64,000 nucleotides of DNA, from NCBI GenBank assembly GCA_951813565.1, contig OX638351.1:3872001-3936000 (forward strand), given 5' to 3'. The DNA comes from an uncultured Poribacteria bacterium (GTDB lineage: Bacteria; Poribacteria; WGA-4E; WGA-3G). Positions 20,538-61,790 of the stretch are shown piece by piece (the stretch's first letter is position 1; every line of letters starts with the position of its first letter). The position numbers and the translations under genes are program-made. The notes beneath the pieces were generated by a model that saw only the letters and a program-made list of their open reading frames with translations, did no database searches and had not been told where the DNA came from.

Positions 20538-20741
20538 CTGAATAAACCAAAGAGTACCTATTTTGATAAAGAAGATATATTACATCTGGTGATTTCTGAC
20601 GAACCCCAAAGTGGTAGTCTGGAATTGAGTCCTAATATCACCGCTGAATTGAATGATAAAGGTGAACTTATCGGTATTGAGATTCTCAATGCAAGCACTT
20701 TCATTCAGGAAACAGTTTTAGATAAGGGGTACGTTAAATAA
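20538..20741 (+). CDS. DUF2283-domain small protein (possibly start-degenerate)
   Basis: YFDKEDILHL...ELNDKGELIGIEILNAS; the codon after a GAGG RBS is CTG rather than ATG. Confidence 0.55.
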   Translation: MNKPKSTYFDKEDILHLVISDEPQSGSLELSPNITAELNDKGELIGIEILNASTFIQETVLDKGYVK

Positions 20742-20828
20742 TTTTCACTTACCGATGTCTAAGTTTCTTAACGCTCTTCCCGTCAAATCCCCATGCTTTA
20801 GCTTGTGGGATGTAAACGGGCAAAAACC

Positions 20829-20857
20829 TTGACATTGAAATGAAACCCTGATATACT
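20829..20857 (+). promoter_or_regulatory. Sigma70-type promoter of tnpB
   Basis: TTGACA-17 bp-TATACT. Confidence 0.75.
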
Positions 20858-20941
20858 AATTAGACCGTTTCAGTGGTAGTTGTTGTAGCAGCTGCCACAC
20901 CACTACAATGGGAAACGGACTCTTCACAGAAACAGCATATC

Positions 20942-22054
20942 ATGAGAAAAACCTATAAATATAAGATACAAAACCAAAAGAACACACACAAACTTGGCAA
21001 CCTGCTTGACGATATGTGGGAAATCCACGTGCATATCATGCGTTTGGCACGTAGGTATTACCTTATATTTGGAAAGAACCTATCCGCGTATCGTATAAAC
21101 GCACATGTTGCGAAACTCAAAAAGCGGACAAAACCGCATTGGGCAGACTTGCCGAGCCAAGTTGTGCAAGACGTTGTGCTGCGTTATGGTAAATCTCAAG
21201 ACGCTTTCTTTGAGAATATCGAAGACCGAAAAGCGGGCAAAACAACGCGTAAAGTGGGTAGACCGAAAATCAAACCGAGACACAAATACAATTCTATGAC
21301 ATTCACTCAAGCTGGCTATACATTGGAAGATAAGCGTATCAAAATCAATTGTATAGACACATGGTTTTCCTACCACAAACACCGTGATTTCAAAGGAACT
21401 ATCAAGACGATCACCATCAAACGTGACAGGTGCGGTGACTATTGGATATGCTTTTCGTGCGAGAATGTTGACGATTCCGAACCCAAACCCAAGACGGGTA
21501 AGAGCGCAGGATTTGATTACGGAAACAAAACATTCCTCACAAGCGACGAAGGCAACAAGACAGAATCACCAAAACTTTTCAAGCAATCACTCAAGACGCT
21601 GCAATCTCTCAACAAAGCACTCAGTCGTAAAGTCAAAGGTTCTAACAACTATTATCGTGCGTGCCGTGCTTTAGCAAGGCAACACAGAAAGGTTGCACGA
21701 CAAAGAGAAGATTGGCAATGGAAACTTGCCTCAAAACTTTGTGTAGAGTTTGACACACTCATTTTTGAAACGCTGAACCTTGACGGTATGAAACGATTAT
21801 GGGGACGTAAAGTTTCTGACCATTCTTTCTACCAGTTTCTTCAGATATTGGAACAGAAGTGTGCGAAGCACGGCAAAAAACTTTTGCAAATCTCTCAATG
21901 GATAGCAACGACAAAACCTTGCAGTGATTGTGGATACCATAACGAAGAACTCTCTCTCGCAGATAGACAGTGGACATGCCCCGAATGTGGCTCACACCAC
22001 GACAGAGACACCAACGCTGCTATCAATATCAAACGGGCAGGCTTGGCTGCCTAA
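20942..22054 (+). CDS. tnpB: RNA-guided endonuclease TnpB
   Basis: RuvC D (GFDYG), E (IFETL), D (DRDTNAA); Zn ribbon CSDC/CPEC; ATG at 20942 (MRKTYKY). Confidence 0.93.
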   Translation: MRKTYKYKIQNQKNTHKLGNLLDDMWEIHVHIMRLARRYYLIFGKNLSAYRINAHVAKLKKRTKPHWADLPSQVVQDVVLRYGKSQDAFFENIEDRKAGKTTRKVGRPKIKPRHKYNSMTFTQAGYTLEDKRIKINCIDTWFSYHKHRDFKGTIKTITIKRDRCGDYWICFSCENVDDSEPKPKTGKSAGFDYGNKTFLTSDEGNKTESPKLFKQSLKTLQSLNKALSRKVKGSNNYYRACRALARQHRKVARQREDWQWKLASKLCVEFDTLIFETLNLDGMKRLWGRKVSDHSFYQFLQILEQKCAKHGKKLLQISQWIATTKPCSDCGYHNEELSLADRQWTCPECGSHHDRDTNAAINIKRAGLAA

Positions 22055-22165
22055 AGTGGAGCGACAATAAGACGGTGGACGCTAAGCGAAAACCGCAGTC
22101 GCAAGGAAGCACAAGCCCCTACCTTTAGGTAGTGGGTACCTATGACTCGGGGAGTCATTGAAATA
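22028..22165 (+). ncRNA. Putative TnpB omega/reRNA (scaffold plus flanking guide)
   Basis: 119-bp segment overlapping the tnpB 3' end, conserved with 1 mismatch at 29982-30100; position matches known TnpB reRNA organisation; 5' boundary not defined. Confidence 0.65.
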
Positions 22166-29691: not shown

Positions 29692-30100
29692 CACTCCCCC
29701 GTCAAATCCCCATGCTTTAGCTTGTGGGATGTCCACGGCTAACAATGTGATGGACATCACAAAATGTCCAGCGAAAGCGGAATAAAACCCATCGCTATAA
29801 CTAAATCTATAAAGTTGGTGGATAGCGTCCATATCAAGCTACTGCAGTAATGCAGACTGGAATGCGTGAGCGGAGGCAACCCCTCCCGAAGTCTAAGGAC
29901 TTGTCGCGTGGCGTGCCTGGTAGAAAGGGCAGCTATAAAATGGGTGGAAACAGAGCCAACCCACGACATTGCGAAAAATAAATCAAACGGGCAGGCTTGG
30001 CTGCCTAAAGTGGAGCGACAATAAGACGGTGGACGCTAAGCGAAAACCGCAGTCGCGAGGAAGCACAAGCCCCTACCTTTAGGTAGTGGGTACCTATGAC
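29692..30100 (+). mobile_element. Non-autonomous derivative of the TnpB element (both ends, no tnpB)
   Basis: 35-bp left end identical to 20779-20813; 119-bp right end matches 22028-22146 (1 mismatch); unrelated ~250-bp interior. Confidence 0.85.
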
Positions 30101-40535: not shown

Positions 40536-41640
40536 TTATTTTATCATGTTAACTGCGAGTTTAGGTTTTGAAGCGAGATATTTGATTGTATCAGAAATAG
40601 CTGTATACCCTGCAAATCGTCCTACCGATAATGCTGTATTACGATTTGCTGCCATGACTTGTGGTATAGAACCGCATCGGACAGGCGAGGCATCTTCTAC
40701 AAGCACCGTCCCCCGCATCCAGTGCAACTTGTTCTCTATTGACCAATGTCCACGCCGTCCAGTCAGTAAGCGTTCGGCAGATGCTGCTGCGGGATTTAGA
40801 CTTGTTATACCATAGTGGACTTTGTGTGTTTCTTCTTGTGTGTTCAGACTTTTGTCCGTCCAATGATATTGGATCACTTGTGCTATCCCTGGCCAGTCCA
40901 GATACGCATTGAGACTTGTGCTTGCTTTGGGACACCTTGTCTCAAGTCTACCATGTGATTTTTCAACTGTCTCGTAAATGTGGATCGGTTTTCCTAAAAC
41001 AGGGTGTGTTGTCTCCTCAGAAAGTGTGTCAGGAACGTCTTGAAAAAGTTTGTCAATCGCATCTAAAAGGTGAGGTTGGTTGTCTTTGACAGGGAGCACA
41101 TAGTCGCCTTCACGCTCTATGATGGCGTGGCAGAAAGTTCGCTGTGTCAAAAGCGCATCCGGGGAATGCCAAACGCGCATTCGGACCGTTGATTTGGTTG
41201 TGATGACTTTACCCCTCACATCAAAGGTCTTGAGGATCTCTGTTGAGATCGGTATTTCGTTGGTTTTGTTGCTAACACTTTGCTGTGTGAGGGTAGCCCC
41301 TAACTCATGCGAAACGACAGAGAGCAAGTGGCTTATTATCGCACCACTTTTTGGGAGGCACGCATCGTTTTGCCATCTATAGCGACTGCGTCAAGGCATC
41401 CTGTCAAATCCGGACGACTTCTAACACGGTGTTTACCCATTGTGTCAGGGTTTCTTCTAATGCCTCAATATCTAACTTTTTCAATAGATTATGGATAGTT
41501 GAAGCACAAGGTGTTATCTTCTTTGTGAAATCGAGTGCTGGTTGTGAGCGGGCCCAAATAGCGATAGATGTCGTTTCCCTTTATTCTTGCGGGATCTGAA
41601 AGTTTTGCTAACATATCTATTAAGTGGCAAGATTTTCTTC
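40536..41640 (-). pseudogene. Degraded ISAs1-family transposase
   Basis: AIDGKT, NEIP, DALLTQ, VKDNQ, HGRLETR and HWSIENKLHW motifs; 5' part (RKNKGKRH) out of frame; 36-bp insertion at 41161-41196; 5' boundary approximate. Confidence 0.8.
41161..41196 (+). repeat. 36-bp hairpin-GTTGATT unit inside the ISAs1 gene
   Basis: GGGGAATGCCAAACGCGCATTCGGACCGTTGATTTG; removal restores KVITTDALL. Confidence 0.85.
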
Positions 41641-51937: not shown

Positions 51938-52555
51938 TTGGCAGAACAGAAAGCAACTAATATTACGTGGCATGAAACAACTGTCACAAAGCAAGATAGG
52001 GAACAACTACTCAACCAAAAAGGTTGTGTCGTATGGTTTACCGGACTCTCAGGTTCAGGAAAATCAACATTAGCCAATGCAGTGGCACACTTATTACACG
52101 AGCGAAAACATCATACCTATGTCTTAGATGGTGATAATGTCCGACATGGGTTAAACAAAAATTTAGGTTTCTCACCCGAAGACCGCGAGGAAAATATTCG
52201 CCGAGTCGGTGAAGTAGCGAAACTTTTTGTGGATGCGGGTACTATCGTCATGACAGCGTTTATCTCGCCATACCGCGCTGACCGGGACCAAGCAAGAGAC
52301 CTCATAGCTGAAAACAGATTCGTTGAAGTATTTGTTGAATGCCCACTTGACGTATGTGAAGAACGCGACCCGAAAGGTCTATACAAAAAAGCGCGTGCCG
52401 GAGAAATTAAGGAATTTACAGGTATCAGTGCTCCTTATGAAGCACCTCACGAACCAGAGGTTATTGTCAATACAGCGGAACTATCTATTATTGAATCCGC
52501 AGAGAAGGTAGTAGCGTTTCTTGAAAAAACTGCTTTTGTCCCACCTGAAAAATAA
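51938..52555 (+). CDS. cysC: Adenylyl-sulfate kinase
   Basis: [41 protein letters not shown] start after a GAGG RBS. Confidence 0.95.
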
Positions 52556-58429: not shown

Positions 58430-59284
58430 ATGAAAAAGTTTTTGATTGCAATTACACTATTGCTATTCCTCACAAGTGTTGCAGCACATGCACAGTGGCG
58501 CAGCAAAACACATGACGTTTACAACGCACTTCAAAATACTCTTGACATTAAGATTGATGGTGAACTTGATGACGCTGAAGGGTGGGAAGGTGTATTTGAT
58601 ACAGTCAAAGGGACCAATGGAGAACCATTCTGCGGTGTCAAAAATGATACTGATGGGGCAGGAGCAGAGAAAGCTTTTGAATCCCATGGAGGAGGCGATT
58701 GGAAAGGGGCTGATGACCACGAAACCTGTTTTGCAATTGTCTGGGAACCAGATGCCGTTTATATTGGACTAAGTGTTACTGATGACGAGCATCAAAATGG
58801 CGGTGGACAATGGAACGGTGATAGCTTGCAGCTTGCATTTGAACCGACTGGTAAGCGCGACGGAGGACTAACACTCTTTCTCTATAACGTTGCGTTAGGC
58901 AACGATGCAAAGAACATGCTTCCTGTTCATAATGAGACAACAAACGGTGGTCCAGGACTTGTTGCTGGGGAAGATGTCGCCATAACCCGAAACGAAAACG
59001 AAAAAGAGACTTATTATGAAATTGCAATTACTCCTGAAGATTTGGGCTTGAATAGTCAGTTTAAAGAAGGATACGAATTCGGAATCGGAATTTGTGTCAA
59101 CGATGGCGATAAAGCCGCCGGCCAAGAAGGGCAAAAAGGGTGGAGTGGATGGTATCCACGTGCGGTTGTTCACGGAAAAAATTCTGAAAATACAGGGCTT
59201 GTCATTCTCACTGATGAAGTTCTTGCTGTTGAACCTTCAAATAAGTTAACAACAACTTGGGGTAAACTAAAATCAACCCAATAG
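58430..59284 (+). CDS. Exported CBM9/DOMON-like sugar-binding protein
   Basis: Signal peptide; IDGELDD..W, VTDDEH, WNGD, VNDGD; tail AVEPSNKLTTTWGKLK. Confidence 0.7.
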   Translation: MKKFLIAITLLLFLTSVAAHAQWRSKTHDVYNALQNTLDIKIDGELDDAEGWEGVFDTVKGTNGEPFCGVKNDTDGAGAEKAFESHGGGDWKGADDHETCFAIVWEPDAVYIGLSVTDDEHQNGGGQWNGDSLQLAFEPTGKRDGGLTLFLYNVALGNDAKNMLPVHNETTNGGPGLVAGEDVAITRNENEKETYYEIAITPEDLGLNSQFKEGYEFGIGICVNDGDKAAGQEGQKGWSGWYPRAVVHGKNSENTGLVILTDEVLAVEPSNKLTTTWGKLKSTQ

Positions 59285-59557
59285 GTGTCAACTTAAGGAT
59301 ACACCTTCTTGTGGGAGGGGTTTGTAACCCCGATTTAATTAGTTTAGGTTCACAAAAGCGGGGTTACAAACCCGACAAATGCCAAAAGCAGAATCAACGC
59401 CGAGCGCGCGTATGGCACTCGTCGCATTTGGCGTTGATTTGGCAGCATGCCATACGGGGAATGCCAACAAGCATTCATACCGTTGATTTGGCGCATGCTG
59501 CGTTGATTCACTCCCACAAGAGACAATCTGGTAATTATGTGCTTAAATTGACGCCTA
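59282..59557. mobile_element. MITE with a long (24-bp) target duplication
   Basis: TIR TAGGTGTCAACTTAAG / CTTAAATTGACGCCTA (14/16); TGGGGTA(A/G)ACTAAAATCAACCCAA at 59258-59281 and 59558-59581. Confidence 0.8.
59374..59510. repeat. Four hairpin-GTTGATT units (34+34+34+35 bp), two nested inside two others
   Basis: Removal restores CGGGGTTACAAACCCCTCCCAC, the exact reverse complement of the REP at 59311-59332. Confidence 0.9.
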
Positions 59558-59755
59558 TGGGGTAGACTAAAATCAACCCAATAACTGTTTTGACATAAGC
59601 TAAAACTGCTAAACCGTAGCGGAAAAACAGCCGCTACCTAATCTGTTTGGGCAGAAATACCTGCCCAATTTTCTAACACAGGAAGCAACGCTGTTGCTCT
59701 TTCAAAACTTCCACTGCTAAGGTGGAATATAATTAATATAGAGAGGTAAATTTAG

Positions 59756-60601
59756 ATGAAAAAACAGGTTTTTGTATTTGCTGCACTATTTGCAGCAGTA
59801 ACTCTACTTACAATTAATGTCGCAGATGCACAGTGGCGTAGTCCAACACACGATGTATACAATGCCCCATCTGGTGTTGACGTTACCATTGATGGTAATC
59901 TTGACGAATGGGGTGAGGTTATGGATGCTGTCACTGGAACTGACGGTTCCCCGTTTTGCGGCGTAGAATTTGAAGGCGTCGGCGGCGCAGTTAAAGTTTT
60001 TGAAGAACACGGTGGTGGTAAATGGAACAGTGCTGATGACCAAACAGTCTGTTTCATGATTGCTTGGAACCCCGATGCGGCTTATCTTGCACTGAGTGTT
60101 ACTGATGACGAGCATCAAAATTCCGGTGCTGCATGGAATGGTGATGCCGCACAAATCGCATTTGAACCAACTGGCAAGCGCGATGGAGGGTTAGCACTCT
60201 TTCTCTATAACGTTGCATTAGACAACAATGCAGAAAATCTCATCCTTCATAATGAGAGAACAAACGGACAACCTGGTCTTGAGGCAGAGAGAGATTTTGC
60301 AATCACTCGAGACGAGGGTGCTAAGAAAACCTACTACGAATTTAAATTCACTCCTGCGAATTTCGGTCTTGCTGGTTCATTTAGTGCAGGTATCGAAGTC
60401 GGTTTAGGTATCTGTGTCAATGATGGCGATATAGACACTCCTGGGCAAAAAGGGTGGGGTGGTTGGTATCCGCATTCTGTTGTCCACGGAAAAAATTCCG
60501 AAAAGACGGGACTTGTTGTGCTTAGCAGCAATGCGGTAACCGCTGTTGAACCAGCTGATAAACTTACTACTACATGGGGTAATTTGAAATCTACCCAGTA
60601 G
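59756..60601 (+). CDS. Exported CBM9/DOMON-like protein (tandem paralog of 58430-59284)
   Basis: Shares AQWRS.THDVYNA, AFEPTGKRDGGL and VVHGKNSE; tail AVEPADKLTTTWGNLK. Confidence 0.7.
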   Translation: MKKQVFVFAALFAAVTLLTINVADAQWRSPTHDVYNAPSGVDVTIDGNLDEWGEVMDAVTGTDGSPFCGVEFEGVGGAVKVFEEHGGGKWNSADDQTVCFMIAWNPDAAYLALSVTDDEHQNSGAAWNGDAAQIAFEPTGKRDGGLALFLYNVALDNNAENLILHNERTNGQPGLEAERDFAITRDEGAKKTYYEFKFTPANFGLAGSFSAGIEVGLGICVNDGDIDTPGQKGWGGWYPHSVVHGKNSEKTGLVVLSSNAVTAVEPADKLTTTWGNLKSTQ

Positions 60602-60632
60602 CAGCTTAACACTTATCAGTAATCTTTAGTTC

Positions 60633-60664
60633 CATTATAGTGGTTCATTCGAACCACTATAATG
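60633..60664. terminator. Probable terminator hairpin
   Basis: CATTATAGTGGTTC-ATTC-GAACCACTATAATG, 14-bp perfect stem after the stop codon. Confidence 0.6.
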
Positions 60665-60732
60665 AAAAATATGTTTCAATCAAATTAGATGTTCCCGGTG
60701 AACTTTCAATACCGCTTCTGTATTAGGCTCTA

Positions 60733-60924
60733 ATACCAATTCTAAAATACAATGTCCCATTTAACATACTGCAATTTAATGGAATATCTATAGAAGATAA
60801 GAATGTCCGAGGCGCCAAGTCATGGCGAATACCATACGCGTATTCGCCCAAGTGCGCTTGGCAATGAATTGCGCGACTACGAACAGATAATTTGAAAATG
60901 AGAAGTTATTTTCAGAAATGGTAT
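60733..60924. mobile_element. MITE-like element with a REP interrupted by a 47-bp hairpin (60814-60860)
   Basis: Imperfect TIR ATACCAATTCTAAAATA / TATTTTCAGAAATGGTAT; AGGC^GCAATGAATTGCGCGACTAC split by the insert. Confidence 0.6.
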
Positions 60925-61013
60925 AATCATGAGAAGTTAACCGAGGAGCTAAAACACTGGCTTGTTTGTTGAACGAGAAGAAGAAAAGCCAAAACATAAT
61001 ACCAATATTCCAC

Positions 61014-61790
61014 TTACCACATTTTCAGATTCGCCCACCTCGTTGTGAGTTTTCCATCTGCTTCAACAGCAGCAAATTCTTCAACATAGTTCAGCAAATT
61101 TTCCATGAAAAGTTTTGCCATGTCTTTCGTATGGTCATCGTTACCTGCGATATAGTATTTATCAGGTGCAATTGCCATCATCAGGAACTTACCTTTCCCG
61201 AATTCCGCTTCCATAATGACAGGTTGTCCCAAACTTTCCATCAGCACGTCAAATCCTGTCTGAGAAGCGATGACTTCCCAAACAGTAGGCCAGCCTTGAT
61301 GTCCCCAGCCTTTAAACGTATTCTCATTCATACGGTTTGGTTCGTTAAAGAGCCGATGCTCCGCTTCTAATATTTTAAAATCTGCACTATCACGGTCACT
61401 CCGAACACAACTCAATTCAGGCGGCAACCAATCCACCTTCGCTTCGTTTTGGTCAGCTTGGGTCGGTTCCCAGACGACACCACCATTTACGACGAAATCC
61501 TGAATTGCTTTTGCATTCTTGTCAAGGTTTTGGTGCAATCCAGCATTGTTTGTCGTCATGCTACCGATTAAGAAAATTCTATTTTCCGCTTTGAGGGGTA
61601 GCTCTCCACCTTCAAGCGCCTTTGTCAGATCATCGTACTCAACTTTGAATTCATCCAGTGTCTGACGCAACGCATCAACTTTTGTCCACTCGTCAGCAAA
61701 ATCAACAACAGCAATTTTAGCAGCTTCTACAGCCATTACGCTCAAAATGAGGTTCAAAATACAGAACCATGCAAACAAACGGTGAAACAT
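61014..61790 (-). CDS. Exported hypothetical protein with conserved C-terminal tail
   Basis: Signal peptide; tail AVEADGKLTTRWANLK. Confidence 0.7.
   Translation of the reverse strand: MFHRLFAWFCILNLILSVMAVEAAKIAVVDFADEWTKVDALRQTLDEFKVEYDDLTKALEGGELPLKAENRIFLIGSMTTNNAGLHQNLDKNAKAIQDFVVNGGVVWEPTQADQNEAKVDWLPPELSCVRSDRDSADFKILEAEHRLFNEPNRMNENTFKGWGHQGWPTVWEVIASQTGFDVLMESLGQPVIMEAEFGKGKFLMMAIAPDKYYIAGNDDHTKDMAKLFMENLLNYVEEFAAVEADGKLTTRWANLKMW

Follow-up and report, generated by a model that had tools for sequence, protein, structure and literature searches.

The window analysed here is a 64,000-nucleotide stretch of the 5.43-Mb, single-contig genome of an uncultured, sponge-symbiotic Poribacteria bacterium (hereafter G000), and coordinates are window positions unless they are given for G000. 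Near its right end, between two CBM9-like genes, lies a MITE-like carrier with a REP doublet, one arm of which is interrupted by short repeat units (Table 1). These four units, A to D, share one plan when cut as in an earlier note on this DNA: a hairpin, then the heptamer GTTGATT, then two variable nucleotides. The secreted neighbour proteins encoded at 58430-61790 end in a common KLTTxWxxLK motif, an ending that is typical of Poribacteria.

Table 1. Positions of the repeat units, REP arms and carrier in the window
Feature	Position	Strand	Details
Further unit of the family	41161..41196	+	36 nt; inside a DDE transposase-like gene; matching site empty in the relative G006
End of upstream CBM9-like gene	59258..59288	+	copied (28/31 nt) at 59558-59588, beyond the carrier
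MITE-like carrier	59281..59558	.	276 bp between terminal TA bases; terminal inverted repeats; contains the REP doublet
Left REP arm	59307..59336	+	GTGG-tagged palindrome; empty
Right REP arm (inverted), portion preceding the insertion	59355..59373	-	CCC at end
Unit A	59374..59441	+	34 nt; tail TG; interrupted by B after 59389; at the left junction of C
Unit B	59390..59423	-	34 nt; tail CT; within A
Unit C	59442..59510	+	34 nt; tail CA; interrupted by D after 59455
Unit D	59456..59490	+	35 nt; second structural type (bulge at stem base); tail TG; in the loop of C at C|G
Right REP arm, portion after the insertion	59511..59521	-	

The earlier note had parsed the interruption into four units, with B inside A and D inside C. 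This parse was right: an independent script that peels units recursively across the whole genome, and that was not given the coordinates of the note, returned the same four units with identical ends. All four lengths were reproduced, 34 + 34 + 34 + 35 nt making up the 137-bp interruption, and once 59374-59510 is deleted the right REP arm agrees without a mismatch with the reverse complement of the left arm for 26 nt (59307-59332), followed by one mismatch. The heading of four units nested in one REP arm needs amendment, as the nesting depth is two and A and C stand in tandem. A stricter unit pattern matched the window seven times, against 0.01 expected; A and C are missing from this count because both are split, and one of the seven matches, at 52062 inside a gene, is probably due to chance. 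As single-stranded DNA the whole region folds strongly (z = -8.4), mostly due to the REP arms, and Rfam gave no match at E ≤ 1 in 59200-59800.

We also looked at the locus in contigs from four public short-read runs. Contigs entered the carrier from the right (59532-59533) in all four runs and from the left (59310-59319) in three, and a 64-nt contig matched 59388-59451 exactly in two runs, that piece being multi-copy. No contig of the four runs spans the array, the exact interior of this copy being as given by the assembly, and none contains a joint lacking the 137 bp or the carrier. The runs containing the stretch include sponge metagenomes.

The gap between the two genes could be read in 28 of 29 loci from relatives. 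The REP doublet, any unit of the family and the carrier of about 300 bp were absent from all 28, although the more distant ones may correspond to other, paralogous gaps within the gene array. The gap measures 172 nt in the nearest relative vs 474 nt in G000. In at least six relatives (loci L005-L033) this intergenic gap of 170 nt was hit by different MITE-like carriers at different positions. The carrier in the window duplicates a complete target hairpin (59258-59588), and its shared flank consists of the last codons of a gene. Shared flanks of 10-20 nt were seen for 13 of 35 pairs of carrier inverted repeats (both strands counted; about seven loci), and the terminal repeat of the carrier occurs in about 92 copies. 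Long duplications of hairpin targets are made by IS1634-type elements, and a 12-copy family in G000 resembles such an element, judged by eye.

The units belong to a large family. A relaxed form of the unit pattern matched G000 676 times, against about 14 matches scaled from a third-order Markov control. These matches fall in 518 clusters, 57 of which contain no unit under a stricter folding filter. The script parsed 658 units, and the family ranges from 33 to 36 nt in length; 340 of the 461 clusters with parsed units hold a single one, and the multi-unit clusters are mostly tandem or nested. Only 37 of the 658 lie inside crude ORF calls that cover 83% of the genome, and the ORFs containing them are mostly short or start-extended. 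No strand bias was found relative to gene direction or to the GC-skew halves (348:310), the skew signal being weak. We searched G000 for orphan heads or tails of a longer autonomous parent, and those among the matches listed were nested or decayed copies. The units are preceded by 100 distinct left 8-mers, mutually non-independent; copy counts are inflated by duplication of carriers and independent events are far fewer.

The hairpin is conserved as a structure. In the 35 arm pairs that occur more than once, most of the nine stem positions vary between two or three kinds of Watson-Crick pair, and the Watson-Crick fraction of the stems is 0.89, vs 0.67 ± 0.03 in shuffles, of which none in 2,000 reached 0.89; as the sequences are related and were pre-filtered for pairing, this score is not a probability. 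Two structural types occur: in A, B and C a single C bulges out close to the loop, and in D the bulge has 2-3 nt and lies at the base of the stem. Over all arm pairs, G.T mismatches are more frequent than A.C ones (41:16, p = 0.001), as they are in the multi-copy pairs (13:6, p = 0.17), a moderate hint that the folded strand may be the one that reads hairpin-then-GTTGATT, with the tag 3' of the hairpin, unlike in REPs.

The family is enriched in two genera of Poribacteria. With the stricter pattern, all 37 other genomes of the host genus (g1) carry between 9 and 465 copies and 57 genomes of the sister genus (g9) between 1 and 215, and each of 56 genomes from the rest of the phylum sample has at most seven. 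When genome collections were scanned, all 80 among the matches listed were assigned to Candidatus Poribacteria, and six pattern matches in viral contigs included none with the anatomy of the unit.

Across the family, the plan of the element is a 5' C, a 9-bp hairpin with a bulge, GTTGATT and a pyrimidine. The C precedes the head in 474 of 498 non-tandem units, where it pairs with the G of the tail; CC stands ahead of that C in 301 of the 474, and a pyrimidine follows GTTGATT in 613 of 620. The earlier note had proposed that each unit carries a CG in its loop and thereby creates a new target. This rule is too narrow: the loop of D has no CG, C itself went in at C|C, and the commonest self-target is a unit's own left junction, which gives tandem arrays. 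C|G is just the commonest target. The major class reads CC-C-G, targets after GG, TA or TG are used too, and many insertions lie at CC|TA, CC|GT, CC|AA or GG sites from which target bases were lost.

These losses were read from empty sites. In a search that covered G000 and 800 kb of G006, sites with matching flanks of 25 + 22 nt and no unit were found for 172 of 495 distinct filled contexts, the contexts being mutually non-independent. Clean insertions after C had turned CG into C[body]TGG in 77 cases, CC into C[body]CAC in 12 and CG into C[body]CTG in 3. Among the insertions with target loss, TAC had become C[body]CAC in 25, and the others involved AACC (11, with three flank mismatches), GT (6), TACCGT (4), TG (3) and TAAC (2), with a further 14 at CTG that are ambiguous. 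In 25 of the 172 the target was CC|TAC, where an inverted GTAG REP ends.

The left C is present even at targets with another base in that position. When empty sites were sought with 8 + 8 nt flanks and all four bases tried, T in place of C was the best match, with no C variant, for 15 contexts in G000 and 12 in G006. Where the target was a unit's own tail, empty sites had G 183 times and C never, and filled sites had C 25 times. If the flanks are kept very short, C variants turn out to be common at two REP ends (42 C to 261 T, and 44 C to 34 T); in part, the base replacement could be insertion into such rare C variants. In other genomes, GG-ended targets were unable to supply the C, as judged by eye against the REP forms found elsewhere. 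One body type carries several tails, which indicates that the tail follows the target. The junction rule is thus an exact 5' C and a ragged 3' end that loses 1-3 target bases, with no target duplication. Checked by eye, none of four rules for the two tail bases held for every class; the rules were the complement of the lost base, an inherited tail, IS608-type guide pairing and an integron G|TT crossover.

Comparison between genomes gave only one clean empty/filled pair, at a non-REP coding target, in the 800 kb of one relative that was aligned. Here the unit at 41161-41196 keeps the reading frame, adding 12 codons, and G000 has three filled copies. The same alignment to G006 gave five candidate gaps, two of them clean and unit-only (one site, two paralogues).

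The intermediates that the earlier note had proposed to look for are present within G000 itself. The same REP site occurs at 240 loci, of which 160 are empty, 31 hold one unit, 4 one nested variant, 24 two units, 8 three, 4 four and 9 more, so that 0, 1, 2 and 3 units are all represented and fill ranges up to at least six across the genome. Nor is the 137-bp block an invariant unit, as it occurs complete once in G000 and other fillings are common. Together these data support a stepwise build-up of units at the REP site. Five further loci share the spacer of this doublet; of their right arms, one is empty and the other four have a different filling, and they have a unit in the left arm, unlike the empty left arm here.

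Some of the combinations recur as modules. A[B] occurs seven times exactly in G000, and all 12 copies of unit B have the same sequence and sit at the same position of an A-type unit; ten of them belong to A[B]+C arrays, and the remaining two lie in other hosts and a different REP family. D-type units were found in the loops of other units in 53 cases, which confirms that units do target their own family; these comprise 23 host/loop combinations and 12 host heads, a variety that makes the loop insertions look repeated. Arrays in which A and C alternate show a 69-bp period, which suggests slippage. The claim of at least four separate events therefore holds in one sense, in that the units are separate insertions of one family and intermediates exist. 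These events need not have occurred at this locus, since the doublet arrived in a carrier of about 300 bp and A[B] is a recurrent module; what was copied in may have been modules already assembled elsewhere. Four kinds of junction had to arise, and the modules were probably copied around afterwards. We infer that unit C was the first into the REP arm, at C|C, because its CA tail adjoins the REP. A would then have entered at the left junction of C, with B going into A after A was in place and D into C after C, partly in ancestral copies, and the finished block would have been brought to this gap inside the carrier.

These data allow us to propose that the units are a mobile micro-element, non-autonomous and single-stranded, that lives as a parasite of REPs, of MITEs and of its own copies. 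That there is a real, self-nesting mobile family is very probable; for the explanation as a whole, with its history and an HUH mechanism, our confidence is moderate, and the HUH-plus-repair chemistry taken by itself is a tentative suggestion. In such a chemistry a borrowed, trans-acting HUH nuclease (Y1, RAYT-like) would nick single-stranded DNA after CC in both donor and target, and the 3'-OH of the target would be joined precisely to the 5' C of the unit. Host repair would complete the other end, trimming 0-3 target bases and keeping 1-2 extra ones. As the left junction reads CC-C-G again, each insertion would make a new target, giving tandem arrays.

An HUH nuclease is favoured by the REP-like anatomy of the unit, by the CTAC-end targets of inverted REPs and by the published cleavage and strand transfer of TnpA-REP. 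One TnpA-REP cuts C|T, including a site that overlaps CTAC, and performs strand transfer (PMC3333891), and another cuts CT and CA, and also CC when given a GTGG guide (PMC8266576). Against this chemistry, no protein could be linked to the units, and the unit has no GTAG tag but one that probably stands 3' of the hairpin. The CC-C-G class that dominates the targets, and the targets after GG, TA or TG, weigh against it too. Published HUH strand transfer is exact, moreover, and a further repair step has to be assumed to explain the lost target bases.

None of the enzymes considered, whether Y1, the tested RAYT, the tyrosine recombinase, reverse transcriptase (RT) or IS110, tracks the units. Y1 genes gave ten matches in G000 and are present in all 21 genomes tested of the two unit-bearing genera, and in 11 of 13 others too; Y1 and RAYT genes are as common in unit-free genomes, and the Y1 count does not follow the family. 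One RAYT of G000 scores above the NCBIfam cut-off and has a unit in its flanking REP. The tested RAYT does not track copy number and has close homologues in other families, and the unit-rich genome G014 contains no homologue of it at E ≤ 1e-8. The IS91-type profile PF04986 had no match, in a search equally silent in every control genome, and IS110 transposase was found neither in G000 nor in any of 29 genomes of the family (f1). The multi-copy ORFs of G000 are ordinary-looking IS genes, named by eye.

A more ambitious form of the proposal is that the units are a distinct minimal class of transposable, single-strand DNA of 33-35 nt, served by a dedicated host nuclease of the two genera, with an exact 5' C, a 3' end made by repair, a target that is overwritten and rebuilt, and cargo in the loop, where A[B] and C[D] can move as units of 68-69 nt. 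We regard this as possible, though doubtful. Similarly doubtful, in our estimate, is a chemistry other than HUH cleavage, template switching, reverse transcription or a recombinase.

Insertion might instead need no enzyme. In this scheme a nicked or stalled 3' end in CC switches template to a donor hairpin, copies C, body and tail, and rejoins the target by a 1-nt match; slippage then enlarges tandem arrays, and gene conversion between REPs moves the modules. The fixed left C at sites whose empty form has T or G fits proofreading of a mismatched primer end, the tails resemble donor flanks (TGG, CAC), slippage and conversion are indicated by the 69-bp period of the A-C arrays and by the recurrence of the A[B] block, and no enzyme tracks the family. 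Two or three homologous bases, however, would hardly yield fixed ends in hundreds of copies, spread over some 100 left contexts; GTTGATT is invariant and the bulge conserved, which suggests that a protein reads both; and the family is confined to two genera. We consider enzyme-free copying improbable.

The same pair of junctions raises the case for RNA. Target-primed reverse transcription joins one end exactly and leaves the other ragged, with additional bases and short deletions of the target; a small structured RNA that is reverse transcribed at a nick would give this pattern. One RT gene of G000 is CRISPR-linked and lies beside Cas1, and a second gene is RT-like. Against this, PF00078 is missing from 17 of 24 genomes of the two genera (10 of 13 in g1 and 7 of 11 in g9), among them four that are unit-rich and single-contig (G017, G005, G023 and G139). 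Priming at the exact junction would also require a bottom-strand RNA, and the wobble bias favours the top strand; none of the 51 CRISPR spacers contains the tag, and RNA runs contain just 5-6% of the words of the stretch. An RNA route is unlikely. The CRISPR locus itself (L001:4992-12100) has a stand-alone RT gene adjoining Cas1 and an array of 51 spacers of 34-41 nt.

Slightly less likely still is a tyrosine or IS607-type serine recombinase that uses a short overlap of CC/GG to integrate the folded unit, one junction being heterologous. The targets mostly end in CC and some in GG, G000 has three IS607-type genes, and a short tyrosine recombinase is kept in 11 of 13 g1 genomes, with 78-95% identity. 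The core is, however, not present at both ends of the unit as IS607 needs, and the ends of the IS607-type elements are unlike it. PMC6188088 indicates both that IS607 inserts at GG without duplication, which would suit this reading, and that its transposase covers about 70 bp of an end, which would not. The tyrosine recombinase is syntenic and has its own conserved upstream inverted repeat, no unit nearby and no orthologue in the unit-rich g9 genomes. At 207 aa, with the catalytic domain alone, it is the sole PF00589 match in G000 (L204:855-1478; G000 4771354-4771977), where no full-length XerC or XerD was found.

That the units are not mobile on their own, or that the array is an assembly artefact, would agree with the lack of a short-read contig across the array and with differences from G006 that are mostly whole carriers, but is highly improbable and already largely refuted by identical long flanks with and without a unit, by the presence of units in numerous repeat families that are unrelated to one another and in a transposase gene whose counterpart in a relative lacks one, and by the same junctions in many other assemblies, the genome itself being one contig.

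The closest known kind is the cyanobacterial SDRs (SDR1-8 of Nostocaceae). Elhai et al. are said to have described in 2008 SDRs of 21-27 nt with covarying stem-loops, nested in their own copies, whose enzyme was unknown. Like SDRs, the Poribacteria unit is shorter than 40 nt, dispersed and built on a conserved, covarying stem-loop; it inserts into other repeats and its own copies, and empty sites exist. It differs in length (33-36 nt vs 21-27 nt), in host, in its fixed GTTGATT tail and in its REP and MITE targets. SDRs are cited in several later papers (PMC4390886, PMC5861425, PMC3116915, PMC2884548); two of these describe precise insertion of SDR5 into another repeat, HIP1 (PMC4390886, PMC5861425), and one states that SDRs were not found outside Nostocaceae (PMC5861425).

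With REPs, REPINs and BIMEs the unit shares a 20-40 nt-class, intergenic, imperfect hairpin, a fixed tag, hundreds of copies, mosaics, the lack of target duplication and a RAYT in the host. Its tag is GTTGATT / AATCAAC, however, with no GTAG or CGTC 5' of the palindrome, and it is single rather than an inverted doublet and itself enters REPs and nests. The combination of an exact end with a variable one is reminiscent of one-ended rolling-circle transposition. As in IS200/IS605 (Y1), IS91 and Helitron-like elements, there is a hairpin near an end, no duplication and one orientation relative to the target strand; unlike IS200/IS605, the unit has 34 nt, one hairpin and no tetranucleotide or fixed 4-5 nt target, and the IS605/TnpB ends of this genome do not look like it (by eye, main TnpB family only). 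It lacks the GG core of IS607 at both ends and in the target. IS110/IS1111 elements insert into REPs without long duplications, as the unit does, but the host has no IS110 transposase and the two ends of the unit share no common core. Like a MITE it is non-autonomous, intergenic and of high copy number, yet it is much shorter and has neither terminal inverted repeats nor target duplication; the carrier is MITE-like, the unit is not. On the features tested, the unit fails membership of SDRs, REPs/REPINs, MITEs, IS605, IS607 and IS110. We found no description of these repeats in Poribacteria in the open-access literature.

How repeats of less than 40 nt, such as SDRs and REPs, spread is a long-standing question. 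The unit is among the smallest mobile-looking DNAs. In its family, filled and empty sites that share identical flanks number in the hundreds, the intermediates form a ladder, and copy number varies between 1 and more than 500 over about 95 genomes, which together make both the junction chemistry and the enzyme testable. The asymmetry of an exact 5' C and a ragged 3' end narrows the chemistry and corrects the idea of a clean insertion at CG. The analysis adds the ladder of fillings at the REP site, the recognition of the carrier and a junction rule that includes target loss, and it excludes RT and IS110 by comparison of genomes. Should the doubtful distinct class prove true, no self-nesting insertion system with a readable chemistry would be smaller, and it could point the way to a compact tool for the insertion of short DNA.

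Further repeats and unit derivatives were observed. The window contains a copy of a 29-member IS605/TnpB family at about 20700-22150 (G000 3892768-3894146) and, at about 29980-30100, a short derivative of this family that retains the right end only; many such derivatives occur genome-wide. Insertion time after time into the unit's own tail has left short tandem runs of tail remnants, each of 7-8 nt, at several loci (L084, L107, L111, L120, L138), a possible source of heptamer and octamer microsatellites. Chimeric units, in which an inverted tail replaces the head to give a perfect long hairpin, were seen at several G000 loci (for example 502451 and 1460171) and probably reflect inversion or recombination between opposed units.
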